IMG/VR virus record: IMGVR_UViG_3300045988_120282 | Span: 70,940-134,939 of that record | DNA from: a virus | Strand: one strand, 5' to 3' | DNA: 64,000 bases | Shown: piece by piece, positions 2,290 to 49,143 of the stretch | How positions within the stretch are numbered: position 1 is the stretch's first letter | Layout of the letters: each line of letters opens with the position of its first letter | The notes under the pieces: generated by a model | What the model saw: only the letters and a program-made list of their open reading frames with translations | Database searches by the model: none | What the model was told of the DNA's origin: nothing | Translations under genes and position numbers: made by a program

Positions 2290-2595
2290 ATGGAAAAGAA
2301 CTTAAAAGATTTATACTTTGTATCTGTTTATTACAGTTTTGATTGTGATTCACCGCTTTATGTTTTTAGTACAGAAGAAGAAGCGGTTGCATTTATTAGA
2401 AAACAATATCAGGATGAATTGAACATAGAATGTAGAGAATTGGAAATTGATATGAGTGTTTCTGAAAAGGATTATAGTGATTATGGATTATTTGTCGATA
2501 TATCCGATGATGGAAGTTTTGCACGTATTGAACAAGTAAACGATGATTCGTCATTTATTGAATGGAATTTAACAACATTAAGAAATGATTTATAA
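2290..2595 (+). CDS. hypothetical acidic protein
   Basis: ORF; start moved to ATG behind RBS CAGGAGGAAC. Confidence 0.5.
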   Translation: MEKNLKDLYFVSVYYSFDCDSPLYVFSTEEEAVAFIRKQYQDELNIECRELEIDMSVSEKDYSDYGLFVDISDDGSFARIEQVNDDSSFIEWNLTTLRNDL

Positions 2596-2612
2596 AAAGG
2601 AAGGTACACAAA

Positions 2613-2849
2613 ATGGAAATTTCAAAGAAACAAACTTATGAACAGTATCAGTTACAATGGATGATTGATCACGGTTTTTCATTAAAAGATTTAATGGAAT
2701 CTATGGACAGATATTTTATGAACGATGGAGATTCTATCCAGGAATTGTTTGAGGATTGGGAGTGTAACTGTGGATTTGGCGGTATATTGTATGCTTGTAA
2801 AGATGAAGCAATAGATTGTGGCGAATGTATAGAAGATGAGGAAGAATAG
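2613..2849 (+). CDS. hypothetical acidic Cys-containing protein
   Basis: ORF with RBS AAAGGAAGG; C-terminal CNCGFGG...CGEC and acidic tail. Confidence 0.5.
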   Translation: MEISKKQTYEQYQLQWMIDHGFSLKDLMESMDRYFMNDGDSIQELFEDWECNCGFGGILYACKDEAIDCGECIEDEEE

Positions 2850-2859
2850 GAGAATAATT

Positions 2860-3132
2860 ATGGAAATTTTAAAGATGACAAGAACAAACATGGTAGTGAT
2901 TCAGACAGTGGAAAAGGAAGAACGTAACACTTTTGACATTGGAAAAATCAGAGTCGCAGCCTTGCCACCGATCGCAAAGAAAGATCTTATCGCAGAACTT
3001 AAAAGCAAGGGCTTCTGCGATGGAATGATCCATACGGTATTACAATGCAAGCTGGAAGATCTAAACGGATATGTGAACGTATGGAAGTATGTAGCGTATA
3101 TCTTAGCCGTAGAACTGATGGAAAGATTATAG
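2860..3132 (+). CDS. hypothetical protein
   Basis: ORF; start at ATG behind RBS AGGAGAATAATT. Confidence 0.5.
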   Translation: MEILKMTRTNMVVIQTVEKEERNTFDIGKIRVAALPPIAKKDLIAELKSKGFCDGMIHTVLQCKLEDLNGYVNVWKYVAYILAVELMERL

Positions 3133-3147
3133 AAGGGCGGTGGAAAC

Positions 3148-3606
3148 ATGGAAAATACAAATACATTAACAGTAAAATTCGTCGGTTTTGGTGGTGGATT
3201 TATGGAATATCCATGCTATAAAGATGAAAACGAAAAGCTATATTTTGACATAAACGATGGGAAAAATGGACTTGACTTATACACTGGTGCTTACATGGAT
3301 GAACTTGGAGATATTTGTGGTGAACCAAATCAGTCAGTAATGCAAGAAATCAAATGCGATAAACCATTTTCAAGGAATCTTAGAGAACGTGATTATCAGT
3401 TTCTAAGTAGATTAAAAGCAGATTGCGAATACTTCTTAAGAAATGGAAACGGTTGTAAGAAATACTTATATAAAGAAAGCATTGAAAAACATTGCGATGA
3501 GATGGAAAAAATATGGAATTCATTTACAGACGAACAAAAACCTAAATGGTTAACGATGGAACAAATAAAAGATTTTAGAAAGAAAATGTTAAATACAAGA
3601 AAGTAG
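3148..3606 (+). CDS. hypothetical Cys-rich protein
   Basis: ORF after GGCGGTGGAAAC. Confidence 0.55.
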   Translation: MENTNTLTVKFVGFGGGFMEYPCYKDENEKLYFDINDGKNGLDLYTGAYMDELGDICGEPNQSVMQEIKCDKPFSRNLRERDYQFLSRLKADCEYFLRNGNGCKKYLYKESIEKHCDEMEKIWNSFTDEQKPKWLTMEQIKDFRKKMLNTRK

Positions 3607-3615
3607 GTGGAAATT

Positions 3616-17872: not shown

Positions 17873-18823
17873 ATGGCAGCAACACAGTTTGAAGTTATTA
17901 AAACAGCAAACAATAATAACGCAGAAGAACCTGAAGCAAAGATCAAAAGACGTAAGGACGGAAATCCTAAATGGACTCGATCTAATAAACAAAAAGGCGT
18001 ATCATCTTTAGTGTATCCAATTAAGAACAAAGAAAAATTTGCAGCCTTTAATGCATATTTTAGAGACCAGATTGATAAATCGTACACAGAGTACAAACGA
18101 TATGTAGCTGCCAGAAACAATCTTTTGGTTGCAGTTGGAAACAATACAGCATATCGTATCTCTGATATCGTCAGACTCAAATGGGGCGATTTATTAAACG
18201 ATAAGACTCGTAAGCAGGAAAAGAAAACAAAGAAATTCAGAACTGTATACTTTAACGATTTGGTAACTGAAGCAGTGGATATTTTCTTTGAAGCTGTTGC
18301 AGGAACTAAATATGATGTCAAGATTGATGGCGAAGTGCCAATGGATGATTATGTTTTTGGAACATGTAAGTCTGGATCAGGACACATGACTGAAGCAAAT
18401 GCTTTGGATTTTGTTAAAAAAGGTGCTAAAGCAGTTGGAATTGAGGACAATATTGGTACGCATACATTACGAAAGAACTTTGTGTATTGGACACTTGTCG
18501 ATCATAAAGATGATCAGAACGTATTGTATACACTTATGAGATTATTGAATCATAGTAGCCCTGCAATGACATTTCTGTATGCAACAATCACAGAGGAAGA
18601 AACTCATGTATTGTTTGATGATATTGCGCAGACATACAAGGAAATTATCAGTGGGGCTTTTAACGGATTGAAGGAAAATGTTGTTAATGTGAGTTATGAT
18701 AGAGTTATGGAGATTATCAAGTTTGCTTATAAGACTGGCAAAGATGATGCAGATCAAGATGATAGAGTACATGAAGATAATATGCAGGCATTAGAAGAGT
18801 TATTGGAAGGAGTAATTGTATGA
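17873..18823 (+). CDS. tyrosine recombinase / phage integrase family protein
   Basis: Catalytic signature present: box I AYRISDIVRLKWGDL (Arg), GTHTLRKNF (His-x-x-Arg), LLNHSSPAMTFLYA (His ... Tyr). Confidence 0.8.
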   Translation: MAATQFEVIKTANNNNAEEPEAKIKRRKDGNPKWTRSNKQKGVSSLVYPIKNKEKFAAFNAYFRDQIDKSYTEYKRYVAARNNLLVAVGNNTAYRISDIVRLKWGDLLNDKTRKQEKKTKKFRTVYFNDLVTEAVDIFFEAVAGTKYDVKIDGEVPMDDYVFGTCKSGSGHMTEANALDFVKKGAKAVGIEDNIGTHTLRKNFVYWTLVDHKDDQNVLYTLMRLLNHSSPAMTFLYATITEEETHVLFDDIAQTYKEIISGAFNGLKENVVNVSYDRVMEIIKFAYKTGKDDADQDDRVHEDNMQALEELLEGVIV

Positions 18824-19566
18824 TATTTGTAACAGGAGATACACATGGGGATTGGATGACTCGATTAAACAGTCGTTCTTTCCCAGAGGGAGTTGAGTTA
18901 ACCAAAGATGATTATGTGATTATCTGCGGAGATTTTGGACTGTGGCATGACACAAAAGAAGAACGATATAATCTGGAATGGTTAGATAACAAGCCATTTA
19001 CTACATTGTTTGTATGTGGGAATCATGAAAATTACGACCGCTTATATCAATATCCTGTAGAGAAATGGTGTGGCGGAAAGATTCACAAGATCAAAGACTC
19101 TGTATTTCATCTTATGCGTGGACAGGTGTTTGAAATTCAAGGAAAGAAATTCTTTACATTTGGCGGTGCCAGTTCCCATGATGTGCAAGATGGAATTTTA
19201 GAGCCAGACGATCCAAGAATTAATGAATGGTACAGAGATTATGACAAAATGTTTAGGATTAATCATGTGAGCTGGTGGAAAGAAGAATTGCCATCTGATA
19301 AAGAGATGGCAGAAGGTGTGATGAATTTAGAGAAAAATGACTTCCAAGTAGATTACGTTATTACACATAGTCCATACACATCTGTTTTAAGACAAATGGA
19401 TCAAGGATCAGGAGTGTACAAATCTGACAAGTTAACGGATTATTTACAGCAAATAAAAGACAAAGTGATTTATCAAAAATGGTTCTTTGGGCATATGCAT
19501 GTGAACCAGAACTTTCCAGGAGATAATGCGATTGCAATTTACGAACAAATTATTAGGATTTTATAG
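18820..19566 (+). CDS. metallophosphoesterase (calcineurin-like phosphoesterase)
   Basis: Motifs GDTHGD, ICGDFGLW, CGNHEN in canonical order. Confidence 0.8.
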   Translation: MIFVTGDTHGDWMTRLNSRSFPEGVELTKDDYVIICGDFGLWHDTKEERYNLEWLDNKPFTTLFVCGNHENYDRLYQYPVEKWCGGKIHKIKDSVFHLMRGQVFEIQGKKFFTFGGASSHDVQDGILEPDDPRINEWYRDYDKMFRINHVSWWKEELPSDKEMAEGVMNLEKNDFQVDYVITHSPYTSVLRQMDQGSGVYKSDKLTDYLQQIKDKVIYQKWFFGHMHVNQNFPGDNAIAIYEQIIRIL

Positions 19567-19577: not shown

Positions 19578-19898
19578 ATGAAGATAAATACGATTAGACA
19601 AAATAAGGAAGAAAAGAAAGCAAACCAGAATCTTATGTGGATTTCAGCCGAGATTCCGCCACTAAAACCAGATAATGCATCACGTTATATGAGATATAAA
19701 ACATATCCCGTTATTGTGGATTACAAATATAATGATGGATGTGTGGACGAAGTGCTTGATTTTTGTGACTATGATTTTGAAGAAAAGAAATGGAAACTGG
19801 ATAAGCCTCATAAAGTTAGACAGTATTTCCCCCTTCCAAGTAAGCACAAAGTAAAGTGTTCGAACAAAAAGAGAACATCTGTTCGAAAAATATCTTGA
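19578..19898 (+). CDS. hypothetical basic protein
   Basis: ORF with RBS TAGGAGAATTTTGT. Confidence 0.5.
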   Translation: MKINTIRQNKEEKKANQNLMWISAEIPPLKPDNASRYMRYKTYPVIVDYKYNDGCVDEVLDFCDYDFEEKKWKLDKPHKVRQYFPLPSKHKVKCSNKKRTSVRKIS

Positions 19899-19969
19899 TT
19901 TTGTTCTATGGTAGCATTATAATAAGAAATGTAGAGATTCTTTGTTCACAATAAAAATTAACTTTCTTT

Positions 19970-20007
19970 CTTGCACCTATTGACAGGGTGCAAAAAGTAT
20001 GGTATAT
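19970..20007 (+). promoter_or_regulatory. promoter with palindromic operator (copy 1 of 3): TTGCACC-TATTGACAG-GGTGCAA ... TGgTATATT
   Basis: -35 TTGACA 19979-19984, 17-nt spacer, extended -10 TGgTATATT 19999-20007; inverted repeat TTGCACC / GGTGCAA brackets the -35; about 55 nt nearly identical to 62425-62480. Confidence 0.6.
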
Positions 20008-20057
20008 TTAATTCATGAAAATAAAAAATGCAACTGGGGAAAGTTGAGGGACGTAAA

Positions 20058-20507
20058 ATGAACGGATATACTAACAAAGAAAGAAAAGGAAACGATAACA
20101 GAAAAAGAAAAGAATATGTATATGGCAAATATCAAAATCCTCAAGTTTGGGGAATATATTTTGCAGATTTGCCGAAAATTGAAGGTAGTCACATCTTGCA
20201 TGGGAAAAGACCAGTCATCGTATATTCTAATAATATTTGTAATAATACAAGCACTGAGATTAACGTGTATCCAATTACAAAAAAATTAAGGAACTGGATA
20301 CCGACACATGTGACCATTTATCCAAATACCAGTAATGGATTAAAAATGGTATCACAGGTGTATTTAGAGCAAGGAAGAACAATTCCAAAGAATAATCTTT
20401 TAGAGTATTGGGGAAGAATATCTGATCTATCTTTAATGTTAAAAATAGGGCATGGCATTTTAATACAAAACGGCATGTTATCGTACATGAATGCAATGGC
20501 ATCCTAG
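20058..20507 (+). CDS. PemK/MazF-fold protein (putative toxin-like endoribonuclease fold)
   Basis: VWGIYFADLPKIEGSHILHGKRPVIVYSNNICNNTSTEINVYPITKK...HVTI...MVSQVYLEQGRTIPKNNL follows the PemK/MazF consensus (G-i-v-f-g-sE-gk-RP-lV-snd---tv-v-PiT); start placed at ATG 20058 behind RBS GAGGGA. Confidence 0.6.
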   Translation: MNGYTNKERKGNDNRKRKEYVYGKYQNPQVWGIYFADLPKIEGSHILHGKRPVIVYSNNICNNTSTEINVYPITKKLRNWIPTHVTIYPNTSNGLKMVSQVYLEQGRTIPKNNLLEYWGRISDLSLMLKIGHGILIQNGMLSYMNAMAS

Positions 20508-20521: not shown

Positions 20522-21538
20522 ATGAATAATAAAGAATTGATACAAAATTATATAGATTCTCACGTATCAGAATCACGTCGCCCAACATGGAATTGGTTAT
20601 TAGATTCTGATATTGCGGACGACAATGAATCTGGGTTAACGTATGCACCAGGCACAATCCAAAAGGCTATATTATCAGATACTAGAGGTAAAAAAACCAA
20701 AAGTATGAATTCTATTAAAAAAAGATATGACCAGCTTGTGAAATTGTATACTTATGCATATGAACAAAATTACATTAAATATAATCCATTTGTTAATGAT
20801 AAATTTATAAACTTGCAATTAGCAGTTGATATATATTTTTCAAATAGAGTTAATGTTAATTATGTTACGCCAGATAAAATAAATGCGTTTATTTCGAATC
20901 TGATGTCGTGCAATGCATCAGCCGATACCAAATTGAATACTAGATTTCACATTGTGAGTTTATATAATGGGATAAATGGAAAGGAGTTAAGAAATCTAAA
21001 ATTCTCGGATATTAATCAAAATGATTTAACAATTTTTGGGAAACCAGTCTCCAAAGATTTTATCGAGACATTGAATGAATATAAATTGAAAATGGGAGAT
21101 ACGAATATATATGATGATTTTGTATTAATACCACGAAAAAAATGTAATAATATAGAAGAATATAAAGCAGAGCAAAAGAGGATATATAATAATGTGCAGT
21201 CTCAATTAGAATTAACAGGCAATACTTTATCTTATGAAAAATTGACAACCATTGATGTTATTAATTCTGGTTTTATACAATATTTAAAATCTAAAATGGA
21301 TATCAAGGCAATTGCAGATTTATATTATATTAAATCAAAAGAAGGAATTGCACGATCTGTAATCGCACGTCAATTTAGTGATATTGCAATTGATTTTTAT
21401 TATAATTATTATATATCATATAGAATAAAGAAGAAACAATTTAGTGATCGTCAAACGGTAATCGGTAAAAGTATTGGTTACCTATATAAAGATGAGGACT
21501 ATAAGAATTATCGTGTACATCAAATCATGGCAGAATAA
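20522..21538 (+). CDS. hypothetical protein with tyrosine-recombinase-like N-terminal/core-binding features but degenerate catalytic motifs
   Basis: AYEQNYIKYNPFVN resembles the core-binding domain end and GINGKELRNLKFSDI resembles box I; no H-x-x-R or His/Tyr box recognisable, so functional call is weak. Confidence 0.3.
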   Translation: MNNKELIQNYIDSHVSESRRPTWNWLLDSDIADDNESGLTYAPGTIQKAILSDTRGKKTKSMNSIKKRYDQLVKLYTYAYEQNYIKYNPFVNDKFINLQLAVDIYFSNRVNVNYVTPDKINAFISNLMSCNASADTKLNTRFHIVSLYNGINGKELRNLKFSDINQNDLTIFGKPVSKDFIETLNEYKLKMGDTNIYDDFVLIPRKKCNNIEEYKAEQKRIYNNVQSQLELTGNTLSYEKLTTIDVINSGFIQYLKSKMDIKAIADLYYIKSKEGIARSVIARQFSDIAIDFYYNYYISYRIKKKQFSDRQTVIGKSIGYLYKDEDYKNYRVHQIMAE

Positions 21539-21552: not shown

Positions 21553-21918
21553 ATGGACAATCAAATATTAGAAATGTTAGCAGCGAATCAATCAAATCAA
21601 ATGCATATTGATGTACTTGATTTACACTCATCAGAAATGTCATCGTGGTTTCTGAGTGAATATAAGATTCGAGCAGATGATAGAAAGATGAAGATCTATG
21701 GCAAAGATAAAGATCTTTCATATCATTGGATCGAATTTATTCAAGATGAGAATTTGTTCTCTCATATTAGGCAGGACGACATATTTGACATAATCAAATG
21801 CCTGCAATTTACATACAAAGAGAGATACAATGTTGGAATAAAAATACAGACAATAAAAAAGAAAGCAGAAGTCTTTGGTAAAACTTCTACTTTCACACAA
21901 ACTAAAAATTTCAACTAA
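21553..21918 (+). CDS. hypothetical protein
   Basis: ORF with RBS AAGGAAGG. Confidence 0.5.
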   Translation: MDNQILEMLAANQSNQMHIDVLDLHSSEMSSWFLSEYKIRADDRKMKIYGKDKDLSYHWIEFIQDENLFSHIRQDDIFDIIKCLQFTYKERYNVGIKIQTIKKKAEVFGKTSTFTQTKNFN

Positions 21919-27183: not shown

Positions 27184-27780
27184 ATGGACGTTAATAAATT
27201 ATTGGTTGTCGTCGATATGCAGAATGATTTCATCGACGGAAGCCTTGGAACCAAAGAAGCACAGGAAATTGTTCCCAAAGTAATTGAGAAAATTAAAAAT
27301 TTTGATGGCATTATTGTAGCAACAATAGATACACATCACGAAGATTATTTTTCTACACAGGAAGGAAAGAAACTTCCAGTAAAACATTGCATTAAAGGAG
27401 AAGATGGTTGGCGATTCAATAAAAAAATTGCAAAGGAGTTATTATCATCTGAAATGTTTACAGAATATCATAAGCAAGAAAAAGGAATATATCTTTTAGA
27501 CACATATCGTAAAGAAACATTTGGGTCATTAGATCTTGCATGTGATTGTGAAGCTGAGTTTGGAGAAGGTAATAGATCTCACCCAGAAGATGTTGAAATT
27601 ACACTCATTGGTCTTTGTACAGATATTTGTGTAATCTCCAACGCAATGTTGTTAAAAACAACGTTACCAGAGGCAAAGCTTATTGTAGATGCATCGTGTT
27701 GCGCAGGTGTAACGCCAGAGAGTCACAAGAACGCACTTGAAGCTATGAAAATGTGCCAGATTGAAGTAATCAATGAGTAA
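27184..27780 (+). CDS. isochorismatase-family hydrolase, nicotinamidase (PncA)-like
   Basis: LLVVVDMQNDFIDG (catalytic Asp region) and LIGLCTDICVISNA (catalytic Cys) typical of PncA/isochorismatase fold. Confidence 0.75.
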   Translation: MDVNKLLVVVDMQNDFIDGSLGTKEAQEIVPKVIEKIKNFDGIIVATIDTHHEDYFSTQEGKKLPVKHCIKGEDGWRFNKKIAKELLSSEMFTEYHKQEKGIYLLDTYRKETFGSLDLACDCEAEFGEGNRSHPEDVEITLIGLCTDICVISNAMLLKTTLPEAKLIVDASCCAGVTPESHKNALEAMKMCQIEVINE

Positions 27781-27794
27781 AGGAGTGATGAAGG

Positions 27795-28631
27795 ATGATT
27801 ACTATTGGTGGAGTACCAGTTGTTCCAGAATCTTTTCCAGATGGAACACAGAAAATTGATTTACCGTTAGGAGCAATGAGATCACGGATTGCAGTAAATA
27901 AATTTGTATCAATTGAATGGCTGTATGAATCAGATAAAGAATTATTTTCGCTATATTGTATTTCAAAAAGTATTCGAGAATATTTCCCACATTTATCACA
28001 GTGTTTAGTGATGCCGTATATTCCGAATGCAAGATTTGACAGGGTTAAAGATCATAACGAATGTTTTACATTAAAATATTTTGCAGAAATCATCAATGAA
28101 TTAAATTTCAGAAAGGTCATCGTAGCAGATCCTCACTCAGATGTTTCTAAAGCATTGATTGATCACCTACAATATATACCAATTAAACTATATATTTCTA
28201 AGGTTTGCAATAAAGTCCTTAAAGCAGAACCATCAAGAAATCTTGTAATCTATTTCCCAGATAGCGGATCACTAAAAAGATATTCTGAATTTGTATCAGA
28301 TGATTATCCGATTGTCTATGGAATTAAAAATCGTGATTGGAAGACAGGCAAAATTCTTGGTATTGAGATTCATGGAGATACAGATAAATTAGATGAGAAT
28401 ACAGCAATTTTAATGATTGATGATATTTGTAGTAAGGGTGGCACATTCTACTACGGATCAAAAGAATTAAACAAATACGGTTGTAAAGATATGTATTTAT
28501 ATGTTAGTCACTGTGAAAATACAATTCTTGATGGAGAATTATTAAAGGAAGATAGTTTGTTTAAAAAAGTGTATACGACACGTAGTATTTTTACAAAAGA
28601 GCATGAGAAGGTTGAGGTGTTAGATTTATGA
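27795..28631 (+). CDS. ribose-phosphate pyrophosphokinase (Prs) homolog; candidate ADP-ribose pyrophosphokinase (Adps-like)
   Basis: Prs-family blocks VMPYIPNARFDR (vs PYYGYARQDR), VIVADPHS (vs IALDLHA), AILMIDDICSKGGT (vs AILIDDIIDTAGT); shorter and divergent relative to housekeeping Prs. Confidence 0.75.
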   Translation: MITIGGVPVVPESFPDGTQKIDLPLGAMRSRIAVNKFVSIEWLYESDKELFSLYCISKSIREYFPHLSQCLVMPYIPNARFDRVKDHNECFTLKYFAEIINELNFRKVIVADPHSDVSKALIDHLQYIPIKLYISKVCNKVLKAEPSRNLVIYFPDSGSLKRYSEFVSDDYPIVYGIKNRDWKTGKILGIEIHGDTDKLDENTAILMIDDICSKGGTFYYGSKELNKYGCKDMYLYVSHCENTILDGELLKEDSLFKKVYTTRSIFTKEHEKVEVLDL

Positions 28632-30097
28632 AACAGACAAATCCAATGTTATTAATTGATTTTTACAAAGCAGTCCATGCTGAAATGTTACCAAAAGGTA
28701 TTACAAAATCTGTTTCTTATTTTACTCCACGTATGAGCAGAGTAAAACGATGGAATGAAGTAGCCATGTTTGGATTACAAGGATTCATTAAAGAGTATTT
28801 GGTCGATTATTTTAATGAGTATTTTTTCTTTGAATATAGAAACAAAGCAATTGGTACTTATAAGACAGTAATGGATGCAGCTCTTGGAGAAGGTACATAT
28901 GGATTACAGAAAATCGAAGATTTATATGATCTTGGCTATCTTCCAATTGAGATTAAGGCTCTTCCTGAAGGAACTTTAGTACCAATGCATGTGCCGATGT
29001 TTAGTATTGAGAATACTCACAAAGATTTTGCATGGTTACCACAGGCATTAGAAAGTTTAATTTCAGCAGAAATGTGGCATCCGATGATAGCTGCGACTGT
29101 CGGGCATACATATAGACAGATCGTTAATAAGTTTTATGAAATGACTTGCGATGATGATATCCCAAAATCTAAGGCATTAGGGGCTTTCGATTTTCGTGGC
29201 GAAGAATGTTTACAGTCTGCGGTTAAAGCAGGGGCAGGATGGTGTTTATCATTCTTGAATACAGCAACAGTTCCAACAATTCCGTATTTAGAGAGAAATT
29301 ATAACTGTGATTGTACGAAAGAGCCAGTTGCTTTTGGTAGTCCGTCTACTGAGCATTCGGTTATGTGTAGTAATTATGCGATTGACGGAGATGAAGAGAC
29401 ACTGATTAAAAGATTGCTAACAGAGATTTACCCAAATACAAGCTTCTCCGCAGTGTTAGATTCTTATGATTATTGGAATGTTGTAGAGAATATTCTTCCA
29501 AAACTCAAGAATGAGATCATGAATCACAATGGATGTTTTCTTGTAAGAGGGGATTCAGGAGATTGTGTAGATGTAGTAACCAGAACAGTATTCAAGTTAT
29601 GGGAAGAATTTGGCGGAACTACGAATAGTAAAGGATACAAAGTATTAGATCCTCATGTAAAAGCAATTTATGGAGATTCAATTACAGTGCAGAGATGTGA
29701 GCAGATTTATGACATCTTAGAGAAAAATGGATTCGCAGCAAGCAATGTTGCACTTGGCGTTGGATCATTCTCATTTCAGTGTATCGAAGAAGATGGAGTT
29801 TTGAAACCATTTACAAGAGATACGTTTAGTAGTTGCATCAAAGCAACATATTGTGAGATTGATGGCAGACCATATCCGATTTTTAAGAATCCAAAAGATG
29901 GCGGATTTAAGAAATCTCAGAGAGGTTTATGTCATGTCTATAAAGGATCAGACGGCAAACTGACATTTAAAGATGAATATACTTCAGAAAATCTTCCAAT
30001 GAATAATTTGCTTGAGACGGTATTTAGAGACGGTAAATTGGTCAAAGAACAGTCATTACAGGAGATTAGAAGAGTGTTAAACGAAGGAGAATTTTAA
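28628..30097 (+). CDS. NAMPT-family phosphoribosyltransferase (NadV / Namat-like)
   Basis: Collinear with NAMPT over full length: LLIDFYKAVH, LPIEIKALPEG, FDFRGEE, PSTEHSV, VLDSYD, VRGDSGD, NSKGYKVLDPHVKAIYGDSI. Confidence 0.85.
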   Translation: MKQTNPMLLIDFYKAVHAEMLPKGITKSVSYFTPRMSRVKRWNEVAMFGLQGFIKEYLVDYFNEYFFFEYRNKAIGTYKTVMDAALGEGTYGLQKIEDLYDLGYLPIEIKALPEGTLVPMHVPMFSIENTHKDFAWLPQALESLISAEMWHPMIAATVGHTYRQIVNKFYEMTCDDDIPKSKALGAFDFRGEECLQSAVKAGAGWCLSFLNTATVPTIPYLERNYNCDCTKEPVAFGSPSTEHSVMCSNYAIDGDEETLIKRLLTEIYPNTSFSAVLDSYDYWNVVENILPKLKNEIMNHNGCFLVRGDSGDCVDVVTRTVFKLWEEFGGTTNSKGYKVLDPHVKAIYGDSITVQRCEQIYDILEKNGFAASNVALGVGSFSFQCIEEDGVLKPFTRDTFSSCIKATYCEIDGRPYPIFKNPKDGGFKKSQRGLCHVYKGSDGKLTFKDEYTSENLPMNNLLETVFRDGKLVKEQSLQEIRRVLNEGEF

Positions 30098-30114
30098 GAG
30101 AGGAGATATAAAAC

Positions 30115-30885
30115 ATGAGTTTTAATGCAGCAGAAACCAAAGACAGATTAGTACAGTGGATTAGAGATTGGTTTAAAGTTAATGGAAGATGGTGTAATGC
30201 CGTTGTAGGAATTTCAGGCGGTAAAGATTCATCAGTTGTCGCTGCCTTATGTGTCGAAGCACTAGGTAAAGATCGAGTTATTGGAATTATGATGCCACAG
30301 GGTGTGCAGAGTGATATTGAGTATTCTCAGATGCTATGTGATCATCTAGGAATTGAACATTACACAGTTAATATTTTTAATGCTTGCAGAGATATTAAAC
30401 ATGAAATCAGAGATGAATTAGGCGGTAAATGGAGTAAACAGAGTGCCACAAATTTACCTGCTCGTATCCGAATGGCTACATTGTATGCTTTTGCACAGAG
30501 TATGAATGGAAGAGTAGCAAATACATGTAATTTATCTGAAGATTGGGTCGGATATGCAACAAGATATGGAGATTCAGCCGGAGATTTTAGTCCATTAAGT
30601 GATCTGACTGTGACAGAAGTTAAAGCAATTGGTAGAGTTCTGGGACTTCCAACAGAGTTAATCGAAAAAACACCTACTGATGGATTATGCGGTAAGACAG
30701 ATGAAGATAATCTTGGATTTACATATGATATGTTAGACGAATATCTGAGAACTGGAGTATGTAAAGATGAAGCAGTGAGACAGATCATTGACGAGATGCA
30801 TGAGAAGAATGTATTTAAACTTGCTCCAATGCCTAAATTTATATCTGGCATGTGGATCGAGGCAGGAATGGAGTTGGATGATTAA
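30115..30885 (+). CDS. nadE: NH3-dependent NAD+ synthetase
   Basis: PP-loop VVGISGGKDSSVVAALC and overall NadE length/architecture. Confidence 0.85.
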   Translation: MSFNAAETKDRLVQWIRDWFKVNGRWCNAVVGISGGKDSSVVAALCVEALGKDRVIGIMMPQGVQSDIEYSQMLCDHLGIEHYTVNIFNACRDIKHEIRDELGGKWSKQSATNLPARIRMATLYAFAQSMNGRVANTCNLSEDWVGYATRYGDSAGDFSPLSDLTVTEVKAIGRVLGLPTELIEKTPTDGLCGKTDEDNLGFTYDMLDEYLRTGVCKDEAVRQIIDEMHEKNVFKLAPMPKFISGMWIEAGMELDD

Positions 30886-32760: not shown

Positions 32761-33495
32761 ATGGCAATTATTATTATTTGTGTAATTGTAGCAATTATCG
32801 CATATTTACAATTTACTAAAAACGGAAAGCAGATTAAAAATGTGGCATCTGGAACAGTTGCAGAAAAGATCAAAGAAAATGCAATGACTCCAGAGGGAGC
32901 AAGAGCCAGATATAATACTGCAATTAAAGAGAAACAGGACTTTTATAAGAAAACAATGGGTACATACACAACGGTAGCTGGTAGATTGGCAACAATGGAA
33001 GATGATCTCAAAGAAACAAAAGAAGAAATTTCTAAAACCGAGGCAATGATCAACCAGTACATTGATAATCATGATGATAAAAAAGCAATGTATTATGCTC
33101 AAAAATTAGCCACGCTAAAGGCACAGAAATCAGTGTACGAAAAGAAAATCCCAGAGTTGCAATCCACAAAAGATAAACAAGAAGAAATTAAAAACCAAGC
33201 GTATGATCAGCTCATTAAGCTAAAAAGCGAAAAAGATACTGTGGTTCTTCAGATGGAGGCAGATCAGCAGATTGCAGAATTGCAGAAAAATTTAGATCAA
33301 TACAATAGTTCAAATGCTGCTCAGGAAGGTTTGGAAGAGGTTCGAGAAGGAGCAAAGAAACTTAGCGAACAAGCCAAAGGCGTTGCTATTGCGTATGAAT
33401 CTAGTGCAGAAACATTGGATTATCATATGGAGCAAGAAGAGCGACAGCAAGAAGCTAAAGCCATATTAGATCAGATGAAAAATGCTCGCAAATAA
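32761..33495 (+). CDS. membrane-anchored coiled-coil protein, PspA/IM30-like
   Basis: N-terminal TM helix then long heptad-repeat region; MEDDLKETKEEISKTEAMI and later segments resemble PspA helices; assignment is tentative. Confidence 0.4.
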   Translation: MAIIIICVIVAIIAYLQFTKNGKQIKNVASGTVAEKIKENAMTPEGARARYNTAIKEKQDFYKKTMGTYTTVAGRLATMEDDLKETKEEISKTEAMINQYIDNHDDKKAMYYAQKLATLKAQKSVYEKKIPELQSTKDKQEEIKNQAYDQLIKLKSEKDTVVLQMEADQQIAELQKNLDQYNSSNAAQEGLEEVREGAKKLSEQAKGVAIAYESSAETLDYHMEQEERQQEAKAILDQMKNARK

Positions 33496-33536
33496 CGAAT
33501 AAATTCATCTACAAAAATTAATTTCACAAACATAAA

Positions 33537-33630
33537 ACTGGCATTTTATGACTCTATAAAACACAATATATAGTGATTATCCAATTATTGAACCACTATA
33601 TATAGTTGTATAAAGTGCCAGTCATGGAAA
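33537..33630. repeat. large nested inverted repeat upstream of tRNA
   Basis: Outer arms AACTGGCATTTTATGAC / ATAAAGTGCCAGTCAT; inner arms CACAATATATAGTG / CACTATATATAGTTGT. Confidence 0.45.
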
Positions 33631-33763
33631 CATAGCTCAGTTGGTAGAGCAGGCAATACATAAACATTCATTTTTCTACCTCCATATAAGTATTTTTATT
33701 TATTTACATTTAATTTTCATCACATATAAATTGCCGACACAGGTTCGATTCCTGTTGTTTCCA
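33626..33763 (+). tRNA. tRNA gene interrupted by an ~67-nt AT-rich insertion in the anticodon loop (anticodon region CAT?)
   Basis: 5' half GGAAACA-TA-GCTC-AGTTGGTA-GAGC-A-GGCAA (33626-33656) and 3' half TTGCC-GAC-ACAGG-TTCGATT-CCTGT-TGTTTCC-A (33731-33763) form perfect acceptor, D, anticodon and T stems; loop begins TACATAA; no encoded CCA. Confidence 0.5.
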
Positions 33764-33765
33764 CT

Positions 33766-33802
33766 AAAAAAGACCTCAACCTAAATGGTTAAAGTCTTTT
33801 TG
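33766..33802. terminator. bidirectional rho-independent terminator
   Basis: AAAAAAGAC ... GTCTTTTTT two-segment hairpin with U-tracts on both strands, between convergent tRNA and repressor gene. Confidence 0.55.
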
Positions 33803-33803
33803 G

Positions 33804-34007
33804 TTAATCGTTTGGTATGACCTCGATAACATCTTCAACTTTGCAATCAAGATATAAGCAAATTTTGTCAATGTTTTCGAGACTGATATACTGATTCTTT
33901 GCCATCTTGGCAATTGTACCAGACCCCATATTTAAAGCGGTTCGTAAATCAGATTTTGTCATACCCTTTTTCGCTAAAGTTACGAAAAGCGGTTTATAAC
34001 TTATCAT
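33804..34007 (-). CDS. XRE-family helix-turn-helix transcriptional repressor (Cro/CI-like)
   Basis: MTKSDLRTALNMGSGTIAKMAKNQYISLENIDKICLYLDCKVEDVIEV is a canonical XRE HTH; RBS GGAGGT 7 nt before ATG 34007; only minus-strand gene, divergent from an operator-bearing promoter. Confidence 0.8.
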   Translation of the reverse strand: MISYKPLFVTLAKKGMTKSDLRTALNMGSGTIAKMAKNQYISLENIDKICLYLDCKVEDVIEVIPND

Positions 34008-34083
34008 ATGATATACCTCCACATCTATATTGTAACATATTATATACAGGATGTAAAATAAAATATTCAAGAAGTTGAAGATT

Positions 34084-34117
34084 TTGCATTGACACTATGT
34101 GCAAGAAGTGGTATATT
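34084..34117 (+). promoter_or_regulatory. promoter/operator copy 3: TTGCA-TTGACA-ctatg-TGCAA ... TGgTATATT
   Basis: -35 TTGACA 34089-34094, 17-nt spacer, extended -10 TGgTATATT; TTGCA / TGCAA inverted repeat around the -35; divergent to the XRE gene. Confidence 0.55.
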
Positions 34118-34173
34118 ATATTCAACAAATGAAAGGTAAACTTCAAGAAAATGAAATATGAAGGAGTGAGAAA

Positions 34174-34581
34174 ATGTCAAATAAAATTTACAGATATTAT
34201 CAACCAAACGATAAAGATACAAAAGACAATCATTCAGATTGCGTGATCAGAGCATTAACAAAAGTGCTTGATAAAGAATGGTTAACAACATTTGATGATT
34301 TGTTACCATACGCAAGGGATATGCAGTGTATGCCATCAGAGCGAAAATGTTACGAAGAATATTTATTCGATAATGGGTTTGCTTATCAAGGTATTAGCAA
34401 CCGAAAAGGATCTAAACGACCAACAGTTGAAAGTTTTGCAAAAGATCATAAACAAGGCAATTACTTGGTAAATGTTGCGAATCATGTAGTTGCAATTTCA
34501 GACGGTTGTTATTACGACACATGGGATTCTGGAGATTGTTGCTTGTATGGATATTACTATAAGGAAGAAGGAGAGAAATAA
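34174..34581 (+). CDS. papain-like (C39-like) cysteine peptidase candidate
   Basis: Cys in NHSDCVIRAL, His in NHVVAISDG and Asp in YYDTWDSGD in the order expected for C39-type triad. Confidence 0.45.
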   Translation: MSNKIYRYYQPNDKDTKDNHSDCVIRALTKVLDKEWLTTFDDLLPYARDMQCMPSERKCYEEYLFDNGFAYQGISNRKGSKRPTVESFAKDHKQGNYLVNVANHVVAISDGCYYDTWDSGDCCLYGYYYKEEGEK

Positions 34582-34869
34582 ATGAGAAAGAAAATTTTGG
34601 CAACGGTTCTAGGAACAACGATTTGCTTAGGATCAATGACAGGATGTACCGCAGGATTCAAAAGAGGAGTTGTTGATATGAAAAGCAATTGGAATGGTGG
34701 TATGAATAGAGTCATTACAGTATACACGGCAGACGGTAAGAAGATTGCTGAATATAAAGGAAAAATTGATATTGATACAAATGATGGTGGATATGTCAAG
34801 TTTGACTACAAAGGTAAGAGATATATTTATTATAACTGTTTTGTAGAGAGTATCGCAGATATTGATTAG
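34582..34869 (+). CDS. lipoprotein
   Basis: MRKKILATVLGTTICLGSMTGC signal peptide with lipobox Cys. Confidence 0.6.
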   Translation: MRKKILATVLGTTICLGSMTGCTAGFKRGVVDMKSNWNGGMNRVITVYTADGKKIAEYKGKIDIDTNDGGYVKFDYKGKRYIYYNCFVESIADID

Positions 34870-35169: not shown

Positions 35170-35277
35170 CACGATTCTCATGGATGGAGAAGGCGTAACA
35201 GTAACATTTTATACTATAACGACGAAAGTGTTTTGGCGTGGAGAGAGATTGAAGAGTTTAAAAGTGAGGGGAAATAA

Positions 35278-35790
35278 ATGAGTACAACAAAAACAATTGA
35301 TATTTCAGTGCTGCCAGAGGCAGAACAGGATCTAATAAAAGCATTATTTGATAAATGTTGTGAAAGAGCGAAACCAAAAGAAAAAACTAATTCAGGGTCT
35401 AAAGTTTGGAAACCAAAATACGGTGAAAGATATCATTACATTGATGGTAGCGGATCTATTTATAGTGCAATATGGTTTAATAGCATTGTCGATAACGGTA
35501 GATGGGTATTAGGCAACGTATTTAAAACACAAGAAGAAGCAGTATTTGCAAGAAAGAAAAGAAAAGTAGAAGTTGAACTTGAGCGGTATGCAAAGGAACA
35601 CAATGGCACAGAATTTGCCAATCGTTGTTATTGTATTCGATGTGAAGAAGACGGAAAAAGACTTCTTTGCGATACATGGGCTACAACAAAAATACAGGGT
35701 ACAGTTATGTTTACATCAAAAGATGTTTTAGTTGATGCAATTGAAGCAATCGGAAGAGACAGAATCATTAAATACATCTTTGGAGCATAA
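35278..35790 (+). CDS. hypothetical protein (tandem paralog 1)
   Basis: Shares TIDIS-L-EA-Q-L-K-LF---CER and GNVFKT blocks with 35807-36340. Confidence 0.55.
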   Translation: MSTTKTIDISVLPEAEQDLIKALFDKCCERAKPKEKTNSGSKVWKPKYGERYHYIDGSGSIYSAIWFNSIVDNGRWVLGNVFKTQEEAVFARKKRKVEVELERYAKEHNGTEFANRCYCIRCEEDGKRLLCDTWATTKIQGTVMFTSKDVLVDAIEAIGRDRIIKYIFGA

Positions 35791-35806
35791 AGTGAGGTGA
35801 AAGAAA

Positions 35807-36340
35807 ATGGGTACAGAAAAGACAATTGATATTTCAAAATTATCTGAAGCACAACAGAATTTATTCAAATCATTATTTGAGCAATTTTGTGAAAGATCAG
35901 AAAAAGAAGAAAAAGCTAATTCATGTGGTTTAAAGAATGGGGATACGTATTATTTCATCACTGATGATGGGCATATCTGTATGGCAAAATGGCAAGGTAG
36001 AGCATCAGATTTTAGAAGATTAGCTTTAGGTAATGTATTTAAGACTGAAAAGGATACAGAGTTTGCTATTGAAAAGCAGAAGGTTAGGGTTGAATTGCAA
36101 ATATATGCTGATGAACATAATGATCCTGATCAAGAAGAATGGGATGGAGCGAATTTTCATTATTATATTGGATATGATGTGACTGAGGATGATTTGGCAA
36201 AAATCCCTGCCGTACAACTTAGACGCCTAAATGAGGTATATTTTTCTTCTAAAGAAATCGCTGAGGATGCCGCCAACAAGGTTGGAGCAAAACGCATCAT
36301 AAAATATCTATTTGATGTTGATTGTGAGTTGGATGAATAG
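35807..36340 (+). CDS. hypothetical protein (tandem paralog 2)
   Basis: See 35278-35790. Confidence 0.55.
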   Translation: MGTEKTIDISKLSEAQQNLFKSLFEQFCERSEKEEKANSCGLKNGDTYYFITDDGHICMAKWQGRASDFRRLALGNVFKTEKDTEFAIEKQKVRVELQIYADEHNDPDQEEWDGANFHYYIGYDVTEDDLAKIPAVQLRRLNEVYFSSKEIAEDAANKVGAKRIIKYLFDVDCELDE

Positions 36341-41258: not shown

Positions 41259-42044
41259 ATGTCAAGGAAAAATACAAGAGAAATTGAACTTGCTTTTAGT
41301 AAACACAGAGATCCAGATTGGGAAGCCGATGTTGAAATTTATGGTAAAAGAGTTTTAAAAACAGTTCGTGGTATTTGTCTTGGAGATGAATGGACGGAAA
41401 TTGATTCATTGAAAAATAAAGATTGGATTGAGCTGTCAGATATGTTTGGTAATTTTGACAATCATAATCCCTATTTCAATCATAACCCACAATATGTTTT
41501 ATTGGATAAATTCTCTATAACATCTCCTGCGATATTGTGTAGCAATGAAATAGTTATGAAAAATGGCAAAGTTTTGAGTGTTAATAATATATCAGCAAAT
41601 CTATCAGGCGAAAAGGAGGTATACAAGATTTATTCAAATACGAAATATGATGATTATACATATTATGATGAATCAAAAAATTTAGTATTTGAATTAGCAT
41701 CAAAAGATGTTGATAAGATAATCCGATTTATGAGAGATTTTATGGATGTATTGCGTGACAGTAAGTTAACAAAGTATAGAAATAGTAGTTTTTTATGGAG
41801 ACTATTTAACACTCTTGATATGCCATATTTTAAACAAACATATTCCATGAATGATTTGAAAAAATATACAAACACATTTAGATCCGAGGTTTGTGGTCAA
41901 CTAAAAGAAACTATTCCTAATTTTAAATATACTGGAGTTCCAATGGGCGGGTATATTGAAAGATATTTTGAATTAAGCTATGTAGAGGAAGTACAAAAAT
42001 TCATTAAAGAACAGGAGGATAAAAAATGTGAAGAAATTAAATGA
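41259..42044 (+). CDS. hypothetical protein
   Basis: ORF with RBS TAGGAGTG. Confidence 0.5.
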   Translation: MSRKNTREIELAFSKHRDPDWEADVEIYGKRVLKTVRGICLGDEWTEIDSLKNKDWIELSDMFGNFDNHNPYFNHNPQYVLLDKFSITSPAILCSNEIVMKNGKVLSVNNISANLSGEKEVYKIYSNTKYDDYTYYDESKNLVFELASKDVDKIIRFMRDFMDVLRDSKLTKYRNSSFLWRLFNTLDMPYFKQTYSMNDLKKYTNTFRSEVCGQLKETIPNFKYTGVPMGGYIERYFELSYVEEVQKFIKEQEDKKCEEIK

Positions 42045-42561
42045 TGAACAGCGAAAGCTGATTGAAGATAATTATTCTTTAATTTGGCATTTACATGAAA
42101 AATATTTTACAAAGTTTACAGATTTTGATACATATATGGATCTTGGTCGTATGGCAATTTGTAAAGCAGCATTAAAATGGGACGAGTCTAAAGGAACTTT
42201 TGGTACATATCTCTTCTGGGTATTACGTTCAGAAGTGAATCAATATTATACAAAATGGCACAGACCAACAGAAAAAATGAATAGGAATGCTGAATCGTTA
42301 GATACGCCATTGGCAGGATATGAACCAGAAGATGATATTACAATCGGAACAACACTGATGAGTGGGGATAACGTAGAAGATGAGGTGCTTACAAAGGTAC
42401 ATTTTCAAAATGAGTTTGATAAATTGGCACCGAGAAATAAAAAGATTATCACGTTAAAGCAGAAAGGTTTAACACAAAGACAAATTGCAAGTCAGCTTGG
42501 AATCACTCATCAGTGGGTTAGTCAAAATATTGTACAGTTTAAGAAAGCATTATGTGGATAA
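42028..42561 (+). CDS. sigma-70-family RNA polymerase sigma factor (region 2 + region 4)
   Basis: GTG start behind AGGAGG; LIWHLHEKYF..YMDLGRMAICKAALKWDESKGTFGTYLFWVLRSEV (region 2) and LTQRQIASQLGITHQWVSQNIVQFKKAL (region 4 HTH). Confidence 0.8.
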   Translation: MKKLNDEQRKLIEDNYSLIWHLHEKYFTKFTDFDTYMDLGRMAICKAALKWDESKGTFGTYLFWVLRSEVNQYYTKWHRPTEKMNRNAESLDTPLAGYEPEDDITIGTTLMSGDNVEDEVLTKVHFQNEFDKLAPRNKKIITLKQKGLTQRQIASQLGITHQWVSQNIVQFKKALCG

Positions 42562-42574
42562 AAGAGGTGAGACC

Positions 42575-43408
42575 ATGACAATTGAAGAAGTAAAGAATTA
42601 CATAAACTCGTCTACAGAGTATGACTTTTTGCGAGATTATCCGCACAAAATCGCTTTTCTCACGTTAGGTGGAAGTTATGCCTACGGAACAAACACAGAG
42701 GATTCTGACATTGATTTACGTGGTGTTTTTCTTAGTGATAAAAGAGAGATTTTGTTGAATAATAACCAGAACAATCTTGAGAAGACCGATAATCATAAAG
42801 ACATTGATACCGTGTTACATTCGCATATTAAGATGATTAATATGCTTGCCAAGGGCAATCCTACATTTTTAGAGTTGCTATACTTTGCGCCAGACCGCTA
42901 TTTGTATGTATCCGATATTGGTATGGAGTTGATCAAAAATAGAGACATGTTCTTATCTAAGAGAGTTTATCATGCATATAAAGGATATATATGCGATTGT
43001 CTGACTCGAACGAGTTTTAAGTATTATAAAAATAAAGATTCAGAGAAAGAAAAGCAAAAGGCAGAACGATACGCTAATAAATCAATGATGCATGCAGTTC
43101 GATTATTGTTGCAGGGCATTGAATTATTACATAACGGAACAATGTTTGGGTCTATGGACGACATAGGAAAAGATCTTGTAAAGATCAAAGAAGGGTATAA
43201 TAGTACGCATAAAACATATAGATTTAGCAAACACAATGAGCATACAGAATATTTCCCAAATCAGTCATACGATGTTTTTATTGAAGGATTACTTTATCAA
43301 TTTGATTATGATTATATGAATACTGATTTGCCAGACGAACCAGACTGGGATCGTATCAATAACTTCTTGATGACAACAAATGAACGAATTGTGAGAGGAA
43401 TGGTGTAA
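42575..43408 (+). CDS. predicted nucleotidyltransferase (minimal NTase-fold, GS-x-D-x-D)
   Basis: LTLGGSYAYGTNTEDSDIDLRGVF is the NTase-fold G[SG]...D.D signature; start at ATG 42575 behind RBS AAGAGGTGA. Confidence 0.55.
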   Translation: MTIEEVKNYINSSTEYDFLRDYPHKIAFLTLGGSYAYGTNTEDSDIDLRGVFLSDKREILLNNNQNNLEKTDNHKDIDTVLHSHIKMINMLAKGNPTFLELLYFAPDRYLYVSDIGMELIKNRDMFLSKRVYHAYKGYICDCLTRTSFKYYKNKDSEKEKQKAERYANKSMMHAVRLLLQGIELLHNGTMFGSMDDIGKDLVKIKEGYNSTHKTYRFSKHNEHTEYFPNQSYDVFIEGLLYQFDYDYMNTDLPDEPDWDRINNFLMTTNERIVRGMV

Positions 43409-43410
43409 AA

Positions 43411-43680
43411 ATGTATGTAAAGATTGGAGACGAAATTGCTTTTCATCCTGGCGAATGCTTAGAAGAATTTGTTGAATCTTGCAGGATGACTCCTTATCAG
43501 CTTGCGAGTAAAATTGGCATGGATGTTGATTATGTTCAAGGGTTGATTGACGGATCACAAAGTGTTACAAAAGAATTTGCGAAAACAATGGCAGACCATT
43601 ATGGGTTTGCTGATGATGGGCAGTTCTGGTTAAATTTGCAAGAAACATTTGATAAGAAAGTAGGTGATAGGGATGTTTAA
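43411..43680 (+). CDS. HigA-family HTH antitoxin-like protein
   Basis: HPGECLEEFVESCRMTPYQLASKIGMDVDYVQGLIDGSQSVTKEFAKTMADHYGFADDGQFWLNLQETFD matches the HigA/antidote consensus (HPGE-L-E ... WlNLQ--yD). Confidence 0.65.
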   Translation: MYVKIGDEIAFHPGECLEEFVESCRMTPYQLASKIGMDVDYVQGLIDGSQSVTKEFAKTMADHYGFADDGQFWLNLQETFDKKVGDRDV

Positions 43681-48603: not shown

Positions 48604-49143
48604 ATGTCGTTGAAATTAAATGACGAACAGAGAAAATTGGTAGAACAAAATCATAATTTGATTTACTCTGCTATGACAAAATGCGGTATCCGCAGACAAG
48701 ATTTTGATGACTATTATGGATTCGCTGCTATTGGGTTGTGTAAGGCAGCAATTGATTATGATGAATCCAAAGCTAAATCATTCTCTACATATGCATATAA
48801 ATGTATGCAAAAAGAAATTATAGCATATACTCGATGGAGATTTGCAGATAAAAGAGATGAACGACTTACCTTATCGTACAATCAGTTAATGAATGATTTA
48901 GATGAAGACGAAAAAGAATATTCTTTTTTGCTAGCTGATAAAAAAAATAATGAAAAAAAATTAATTTTCTTTTTGTGTTTTGATGAGCAAATGCGAATAC
49001 TAAATAATAAGGACAGGTTAATTATTAATTTAAAGGCAAAAGGGTATACGAACGAAGAAATAGGAAATACCCTTGGTGTTACATATCAAGCAATTCAATA
49101 TCAATTGAAAAAAATTAAAAATAAATTAATCCCATCCTTATAA
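48604..49143 (+). CDS. sigma-70-family sigma factor (paralog of 42028-42561)
   Basis: N-term MSLKLNDEQRKLVEQNHNLIY parallels MKKLNDEQRKLIEDNYSLIW; region 4 HTH YTNEEIGNTLGVTYQAIQYQLKKIKNKL. Confidence 0.75.
   Translation: MSLKLNDEQRKLVEQNHNLIYSAMTKCGIRRQDFDDYYGFAAIGLCKAAIDYDESKAKSFSTYAYKCMQKEIIAYTRWRFADKRDERLTLSYNQLMNDLDEDEKEYSFLLADKKNNEKKLIFFLCFDEQMRILNNKDRLIINLKAKGYTNEEIGNTLGVTYQAIQYQLKKIKNKLIPSL

Follow-up and report, generated by a model that had tools for sequence, protein, structure and literature searches.

How might a large phage carry a gene for an RNA-cleaving toxin with no recognizable antitoxin gene beside it? The question is raised by mazF, a gene at positions 20058–20507 (plus strand) of a 64,000-nucleotide (nt) stretch of IMG/VR virus record IMGVR_UViG_3300045988_120282. 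This stretch, positions 70,940–134,939 of the record, was analysed as a whole and is referred to here as the window; all coordinates are those of the window. The phage is uncultured and has a genome of ~160 kb, and near-identical loci were found on ~50 IMG/VR contigs, many of which are 140–170 kb in length. The answer that we favour, to which we give a probability of roughly one half, is that the locus is a toxin cassette under the control of its own product, a dead recombinase that has been domesticated. The candidate regulator is ORF338, the product of the open reading frame (ORF) that directly follows mazF.

The 149-residue mazF product was identified as a homologue of the MazF/PemK-family endoribonucleases. 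It matches PF02452 (PemK_toxin) in Pfam over residues 31–123 with E = 1.7e-15 (57.6 bits, against a cut-off of 23.1) and PHROG 1936, 'MazF-like growth inhibitor', with E = 2.8e-15. The product could be aligned across the whole core with the solved MazF/PemK/EndoA chains 4HKE, 7BXY and 4MDX, and it shares 33–34% identity with Bacillus and Staphylococcus MazF. In an AlphaFold2 (AF2) model, residues 29–148 form the SH3-like β-barrel core and C-terminal helix of the family, with predicted local distance difference test (pLDDT) values of ~70–88. The top 50 Foldseek matches to this model are MazF proteins only, with a target-normalized TM-score of ~0.8 and a root-mean-square deviation of ~2 Å. The MazF/PemK consensus that the original prediction had recognized in the core is thus borne out, and profile searches, which it had thought might place the protein elsewhere, assign 20058–20507 to MazF and to no other family. 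The family assignment is firm.

The catalytic residues of Bacillus MazF are Arg25 and Thr48, as identified by mutagenesis (PMC7354611), and these align with Arg51 and Thr74 of the phage protein. Across 12 MazF homologues, down to 42% identity, Arg51 and the PTHV motif are invariant, Thr74 is nearly invariant, with Ser in its place in a single allele, and the LEQ motif is conserved for the most part. The ratio of nonsynonymous to synonymous substitution rates (dN/dS) for mazF in the main phage population is 0.014, the lowest value among six neighbouring genes. With its catalytic Arg51 and Thr74 intact, the phage protein is most likely to be an active sequence-specific endoribonuclease. The N-terminal extension had been put at ten residues (MNGYTNKERK) and is about three times longer, at ~28–30 residues: MNGYT is followed by a linker, variable in length and rich in K, R and N, and then by Y.YGKYxNPQVW, which leads into strand 1. 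The extension is basic and is predicted to be disordered in the AF2 model. The β1–β2 loop reads GSHILHG, compared with GSEQGG in Bacillus MazF. A ribosome-binding site, GAGGGA, lies 6–7 nt 5′ of position 20058, and in many relatives an indel of 1 nt (GTAAAATG versus GTAAAAATG) takes an alternative ATG at 20028 out of frame, with MNGYT… kept; the start was therefore placed at 20058.

The gene heads an operon with the order mazF–ORF338–ORF121 and is the first gene behind its promoter, in agreement with the original prediction. The mazF stop and the ORF338 start, which has its own GGAG, are separated by 14 nt, and 14 nt more lead to ORF121. No convincing terminator was seen from mazF up to the end of ORF121 or following it. 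Phage morons, which are autonomous accessory cassettes, have their own promoter and terminator and a deviant base composition. Here the operon has its own σA promoter and a GC content of 29.3% (ORF338 27.5%; whole window 33.8%), and no convincing terminator comes after ORF121. The cassette is present in all relatives and is therefore not an occasional accessory. Gene order was checked in every relative with enough flanking sequence, down to 58–63% MazF identity, and was kept throughout: an intact tyrosine recombinase, variable inserts, mazF, an ORF of ~340 residues and an ORF of ~106–135 residues. An ORF338 homologue directly follows mazF in seven of seven allele classes; where measured, the two genes are separated by 13–21 nt or, in the most divergent allele, overlap by 23 nt. 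The partner evolves faster than the toxin (42–66% against 58–73% identity).

ORF338 (20522–21538, plus strand; 338 residues) had been described as degenerate and recombinase-like, a description upheld by PHROG, Foldseek and an alignment with integrases. It matches PHROG_1 integrase with E = 3.3e-10 over residues 4–210, and Pfam SAM_5 (SAM-like integrase domain) below threshold (18.6 bits against 22.3). Foldseek matches to its AF2 model at ranks 1–20 are all tyrosine recombinases (probability 0.5–1.0, best E = 1.6e-3), with XerA, Tn1549 Int, XerH, Cre and λ Int among the matches. The remote relatives of the ORF338 profile are bona fide integrases only (P0028-30). Taken together, these matches give moderate support to a two-domain tyrosine-recombinase architecture. 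In a MAFFT alignment with integrases, Arg I is replaced by Asn, Ser, Glu or Asp, box II HxxR by DxxN (His in one allele), and His III is lost; the LKFSDI motif and the final tyrosine (Tyr320, in GYLY) are kept. Four of the five catalytic positions that could be aligned are thus missing, the β-hairpin lysine being outside those assigned. Because Arg I, the His and Arg of box II and His III are replaced, recombination by ORF338 is not expected. As read from its sequence, ORF338 would be a recombinase descendant that should bind DNA and should not recombine. The family was found only in this phage lineage, with nine clusters among 5.8e9 proteins and eight matches among 1.84e9 representatives.

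The operon is preceded by promoter P2 (TTGACA-17-TGgTATATT, with an extended −10; 19980–20008, plus strand), which scored 11/12 plus the TG extension and is kept in all alleles. It is one of three intergenic near-consensus σA promoters in the 64 kb (19980, 34089 and 62452); the promoter scan found the first two, and the copy at 62452 was known from the repeat analysis. The −35 hexamer of P2 lies inside TTGCACC-N9-GGTGCAA, within a dyad of 29 bp at 19968–19996, TTCTTGCACC-TATTGACAG-GGTGCAAAAA, which has 11-bp arms and a 7-bp spacer. The centre of the dyad is the G (19982) of the −35 hexamer, and the dyad spans roughly −47 to −19 of P2. The promoter with an operator-like element that figured in the original prediction is therefore real, and the dyad is the predicted operator. 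The perfect arms of 7 nt are below the minimum of the inverted-repeat scan, so the dyad was not reported by that scan.

Dyads were scored using our own script, with the centre fixed at the G of TTGAC and complementarity counted at ±4 to ±14. The main dyad is complementary at nine of 11 positions (P = 5.5e-4), against two of 11 for the control σA promoter at 34089. The mazF promoters of seven allele classes each carry a dyad with the same centre and with 8–10 of 11 positions complementary (P from 5e-5 to 6e-3), and the arms differ from class to class: TTGCACC, AAATGCT, ATCTGCTA, TTGACACT, AAAACCTC, ACTAAACC and TTACCAATCCAA. A single dyad is modestly significant; it is the comparison across alleles that makes the dyad convincing. 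The dyad sits on the −35 and co-varies with the operon alleles; in an autoregulated operon it would be the palindromic operator. Core sites of recombinases have the layout 11-6-11 in dif and 13-8-13 in loxP. The 11-7-11 geometry of the dyad is as in these sites and therefore fits a recombinase-derived binder.

The same cassette occurs again at 62425–62476 (plus strand), which the original prediction had overlooked. This second promoter/operator-like cassette is a 52-nt direct repeat with 90% identity, with its dyad at 62440–62468 and its −35 at 62452–62457, and it shares an exact 23-nt motif with the cassette at mazF. Behind it lies a gene for a secreted 3D-domain protein (62511–63149, plus strand; Pfam 3D domain, E = 4.5e-12), the N-terminus of which looks like a signal peptide. 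The spacer bases of the dyad vary independently at the two loci and the arms are kept. Relatives carry two or three cassette copies per genome. A third exact copy was observed in some main-type genomes (L083, on the reverse strand, and L092), before a gene of ~125 residues (MKKERIYTVKNTNDF…) that is followed by an ORF of 287 residues.

The dyad co-varies with the mazF/ORF338 alleles at both loci. Five genomes (IMGVR_UViG_3300029604_000307, 3300045988_120021, _132849, _133024 and _136879) carry a variant operator, ATCTTTAAATGCT-ATTGACA-AGCATATAAAGGT, and ~46 are of the main type. In these five, the mazF allele is 69% and the ORF338 allele 56% identical to those of the main type, and exactly the same five have the alternative dyad at the 3D-gene promoter, 42 kb from mazF. 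The 3D protein itself is 94–97% identical between the operator groups and the flanking DNA is ordinary; the switching loci share about 45–52 nt, extending beyond the dyad stem. Approximately 98 window genes (window 1–53.7 kb and 61–64 kb) were compared between the groups. Only mazF and ORF338 are both universally present and group-separating: for mazF the main-group minimum is 92.3% and the variant-group maximum 68.9%, and for ORF338, the best separator, these values are 95.0% and 55.8%. The pattern is that of a repressor–operator specificity swap, as far as it can be read from allele comparison. The synonymous divergence (dS) between ORF338 alleles is ~2.4, which is saturated, against 0.13–0.5 in flanking genes; the alleles are therefore old and have been exchanged as cassettes. 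The exchanged unit thus comprises the predicted operator, mazF and ORF338, together with the matching predicted operator at the second locus.

Other candidates for the dyad-specific factor were considered and set aside. ORF316 (the intact recombinase upstream), ORF106, ORF121, the HTH_31 protein, both sigma-like factors and both Ant/Bro proteins fail to separate the operator groups. The only other gene that tracks the groups is 832–1503 (223 residues): every main-type genome has it, whereas of four variant genomes three lack it and the fourth carries a copy that is 57% identical. It was judged an unlikely regulator, as it reads as a secreted or membrane protein and is missing from those three genomes. 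The promoter at 34089 was rejected as a regulon member, as it has no dyad and shows no co-variation. A second example of co-switching was sought in IMG/VR with the P0017-type dyad and gave no match.

From these observations we infer the following course of events. Host σA RNA polymerase would transcribe mazF–ORF338–ORF121 from P2, so that a single transcript would yield both MazF and ORF338. The lox/dif-like 11-7-11 dyads that overlie the −35 at P2 and at the 3D-gene promoter would then be bound by ORF338 dimers, and both promoters would be shut off. Repression is favoured over activation on two grounds: the site overlies the −35, and the promoter is near consensus as it stands. Through such negative feedback, ORF338 would cap the dose of MazF. 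In a toxin-first arrangement, ORF338 might also neutralize MazF by contact, and it is the likeliest candidate for the antitoxin. Binding of the operator by ORF338, for which the allele comparisons speak, is somewhat better than an even bet, and the repressor is probably encoded within the operon itself, a point missed in the original prediction. Direct neutralization of MazF is the weakest step, and we regard it as rather doubtful. The obligate, translationally coupled linkage, the toxin–antitoxin (TA)-like layout, the lack of any other candidate and the faster evolution of the partner would favour it. Of the three earlier readings (an orphan toxin, a toxin with its antitoxin elsewhere or in the downstream protein, and an antitoxin mimic), the downstream protein as antitoxin is the best supported, indirectly. 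The most far-reaching version of the proposal can be put forward only tentatively: a dead tyrosine recombinase would act as both repressor and MazF antitoxin, with lox/dif-like dyads for its operators. The triplet of toxin, pseudo-recombinase and operator would have diversified into seven or more specificities, none cognate to another, which would extend to the control of a secreted cell-wall protein, and the whole would form an exchangeable immunity-like cassette that serves competition among related phages or control of the host.

Several points weigh against the autoregulated cassette. ORF338 is large (338 residues), basic (isoelectric point 9.0) and encoded 3′ of the toxin, unlike known MazE/PemI antitoxins, and its conserved C-terminal GYLYKDEDY may be a relic of the recombinase tyrosine helix. 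Its AF2 model is confident for residues 1–230 and poor beyond residue 232. Comparison of ORF338 with the neighbouring integrase by hhalign of shallow profiles gave no signal; nor did a search of PDB sequences with the ORF338 profile. The observed dyad score is reached in 10% (main type) and 2% (variant type) of cassette shuffles. The co-variation of mazF may be hitch-hiking, as the gene lies between the operator and ORF338, and the switch at the 3D-gene promoter probably happened once, in a single sub-lineage. The gene comparison spans part of the ~160-kb genome, and another co-varying regulator may lie outside it (in 53.7–61 kb of the window or in the further ~100 kb).

The alternative that survives best is that MazF is an orphan early endoribonuclease for shut-off of host or early-message RNA. 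It would work without a protein antitoxin, its dose would be set by timing, and ORF338 would merely limit transcription or have an unrelated role. A consensus host-type promoter in a phage with two sigma-like factors fits immediate-early expression, no canonical antitoxin lies within the 64-kb window, and deposited phages, including the Herelleviridae member Lpa804, commonly carry MazF-like genes with no annotated antitoxin. The sole match obtained from 185,579 species-representative bacterial genomes is a 34%-identical MazF in an Oscillibacter metagenome-assembled genome; with no close relative there, no sign of lysogeny is seen. A precedent is T4 RegB, a phage RNase with the fold of a TA toxin that has no antitoxin and inactivates messages (PMC3014915). 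RegB is a functional analogy for such an orphan RNase; its fold is RelE/YoeB-like and not that of MazF, and it has neither an obligate DNA-binding partner nor a dyad operator. An unrestrained MazF would expose the messages of the phage itself, and its coding strand avoids neither UACAU (115 observed against 101 expected on the sense strand) nor ACA, AACU or the other known MazF motifs; this argument is weak, as the motifs are those of other MazF proteins and may not be recognized by this one. The strongest strand-specific motif outlier, AACTC (z = −4.5), was judged unconvincing as avoidance of a MazF target, and motif avoidance was dropped as a sign of unrestrained MazF. The orphan enzyme also leaves unexplained that mazF never occurs without ORF338, and we hold it to be possible, at clearly lower odds than the cassette under autoregulation.

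A second alternative concerns the dyad, which could be an RNA or DNA hairpin kept by compensatory change or could be bound by some different factor of the phage or host, with ORF338 serving, for example, as an accessory of ORF316. In its favour, structured RNA likewise shows arms that co-vary with pairing kept, and transcripts from P1, which is conserved, would run through the dyad. An intact recombinase invariably lies close by, and roughly 100 kb of the genome lies outside the sampled window. Against a hairpin, the dyad is centred on the −35 of a conserved near-consensus promoter in all alleles and at each locus, and a transcript begun at P2 would not include it. The two loci switch together and share ~45–52 nt past the stem, which is more than a hairpin requires, and no Rfam match was found. 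ORF316 does not co-vary with the dyad, and a host factor cannot account for allele-specific arms inside one phage lineage. We consider this alternative improbable.

A conventional type II MazEF-like system, with its small antitoxin elsewhere in the genome or encoded by ORF121 or ORF106, is less probable still. MazEF and PemIK systems have a small adjacent antitoxin gene, normally upstream, and none was found here. The original prediction had stated that no small antitoxin gene precedes mazF: this holds in that no antitoxin family is encoded there, and fails in that a small gene, ORF106 (19578–19898, plus strand; 106 residues), does lie 160 nt upstream. Its usual presence there, the constant position of ORF121 as the third operon gene and the coverage by the antitoxin search of 64 of ~160 kb speak for such a system. 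ORF106 is absent in the relatives L052–L055, which form one lineage, and is therefore not an obligate partner; ORF121 stays 93% identical in variant genomes where MazF is 69% identical, and does not co-vary with the dyad. Neither ORF121 nor ORF106 gave a significant match in Pfam, NCBIfam or PADLOC. The wider profile search for a cognate antitoxin suggested in the original prediction, run on the 46 small plus-strand ORFs of the window, yielded no canonical antitoxin family (MazE, PemI, AbrB, ribbon–helix–helix and Phd in Pfam), and the sole DNA-binding match among the small ORFs is the HTH_31 gene at 43411. Searches of the mazF neighbours with PADLOC and NCBIfam gave no antitoxin or defence-system match. 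With regard to an RNA antitoxin, the locus has no tandem repeats and no Rfam match.

A catalytically inert decoy or antitoxin mimic, for instance one titrating host MazE, could be argued from the divergent β1–β2 loop and the unusual long basic extension, and is very unlikely because the catalytic Arg is invariant and the Thr nearly so, the PTHV and LEQ motifs of the substrate site are kept in alleles as distant as 58% identity and purifying selection is very strong (dN/dS 0.014).

Returning to the autoregulated cassette, it can be set beside known systems. The MazF/PemK/EndoA proteins of Firmicutes (4MDX from B. subtilis, 7BXY, BC0266 from B. cereus, 4HKE, MoxT from B. anthracis, and 4MZM from S. 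aureus) have the fold, family, catalytic residues and PTHV and LEQ motifs in common with the phage protein, which adds a disordered basic extension of ~28 residues and an altered β1–β2 loop. In contrast to them, the phage gene has no upstream MazE/PemI, is the first in its operon and is phage-borne. Toxin-first type II TA operons that are autoregulated via a promoter palindrome include higBA, hicAB and mqsRA. The locus resembles these in that the toxin gene precedes a tightly coupled partner (predicted here to bind DNA), a dyad lies over the promoter and the partner evolves faster. It differs in that the partner is a 338-residue pseudo-recombinase and not a small antitoxin of the helix–turn–helix (HTH), ribbon–helix–helix or AbrB type, neutralization being a candidate function, and in that the same predicted operator is also present at an unrelated distant gene. 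The model and profile of ORF338 resemble those of XerA and XerH with dif, Cre with loxP and λ Int, and the 11-7-11 dyad is within the dif–loxP range. Unlike recombinase sites, the dyads lie on promoters, in direct orientation and 42 kb apart, and recombination between them would delete the intervening genes, including replication genes.

Phage genes of PHROG 1936 (Lpa804, PMBT24 and the NatCom phages) encode MazF homologues that are 31–44% identical to the product of mazF, usually with no annotated antitoxin. They are ~110–125 residues in length and lack both the N-terminal extension and a recombinase-like neighbour. Literature searches found no functional study of phage MazF-like genes without an antitoxin, and nothing was reported there on a MazF partner derived from a recombinase or on a dead tyrosine recombinase as a repressor; absence from the literature searched is no proof. 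Phage MazF-like genes without an annotated antitoxin are thus known as an uncharacterized annotation class, and the pairing with a domesticated pseudo-recombinase and diversifying lox-like operators is new.

Further elements surround the operon. The promoter-like element P1 (σA-like, TTGATT-17-TATAAT; 19895–19923, plus strand) scored 10/12 in the promoter scan and is kept in most of the mazF alleles inspected, including the class without ORF106. It is followed at ~19924–19945 by a small inverted repeat, AAGAAaT…ATTCTT, which is perfect in L056 (AAGAATT-GTA-AATTCTT); unlike the dyad, this element is not allele-specific. ORF121 (21553–21918, plus strand) has conserved synteny and a dN/dS of 0.26. 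ORF316 (17873–18823, plus strand; 316 residues) is an intact tyrosine recombinase (PF00589, E = 1e-13; PHROG 216 integrase) that keeps the Arg I (YRISD), HTLR and LNH…Y motifs. It is found upstream of mazF in every allele class for which upstream sequence was recovered and is up to 99.7% identical in variant-operator genomes.

The variable inserts between this recombinase and mazF comprise a metallophosphoesterase gene, IS605 TnpB and ORF106. The calcineurin-like metallophosphoesterase gene (18820–19566) lies between the recombinase and ORF106 and is cleanly deleted in several relatives (junction 18887/19513), and is therefore accessory to the module. In the relative L059, the interval from the recombinase to the phosphoesterase holds an IS605-type TnpB (2498–3610). 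A Phd/YefM–YoeB pair is located a few kilobases upstream of the locus in the relative L052 (1–491).

The window has a GC content of 34% and all of its genes are on the plus strand. It encodes Ant/Bro proteins, a helicase, a RecJ-like exonuclease, a polymerase and an exonuclease V homologue. A nucleotide search of deposited phages gave no match, and among isolates the closest counterpart of the DnaE-type polymerase reaches no more than 36% identity. Two sigma-70-like factors with regions 2 and 4 (42028–42561 and 48604–49143) have conserved 5′ DNA in common (repeat families D2 and D6), and their alleles are 29–99% identical between genomes. Besides its homologue of an RNA-cleaving toxin, the phage has a gene at 42485–43408 for an RlaP-family nucleotidyltransferase ('RNA repair pathway', E = 1e-24). 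The adjacent HTH_31 protein (43411–43680; 89 residues) shows no dyad co-variation, and no adjacent toxin gene stood out, although no close check was made. Its N-terminus (..IAFHPGECLEEF..) resembles those of HigA-like antitoxins or regulators.

A set of NAD-salvage genes at 27184–30885 encodes an isochorismatase-family nicotinamidase, NAMPT and NAD synthase, and may counter NAD-depleting host defences. Approximately 680 nt at 33495–34174 have no convincing ORF and end in the σA promoter at 34089–34117, which has no dyad and, from a reading of the sequence, precedes ORF135 and a lipoprotein-like gene (34582–34869). A 119-nt direct repeat with 76% identity (35276–35394 and 35805–35923) lies in adjacent paralogues (35278–35790 and 35807–36340), the alleles of which are 41% to 100% identical between genomes. 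Short GC palindromes are strongly avoided in the window (GGCC 0 against 41 expected, CGCG 1 against 29 and CCGG 4 against 30), and CTGCAG, TCTAGA and CCATGG are absent, which suggests selection against host restriction sites.

Phage 'growth inhibitor' genes of the MazF type are abundant, with no antitoxin or known role, and this locus offers a testable architecture for one of them, in which the toxin would be tied to a regulator of dead-recombinase descent. If the proposal is true, toxin–antitoxin biology would gain an antitoxin or autoregulator whose fold is of a new class, and the locus would be a case from a bacterial virus in which domestication turned a site-specific recombinase into a transcription factor that keeps recombination-site-like operators. 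It would also supply at least seven apparently orthogonal protein–operator pairs as potential parts for synthetic biology. The locus may also reveal how the dose of a potentially suicidal RNase is set in large phages.

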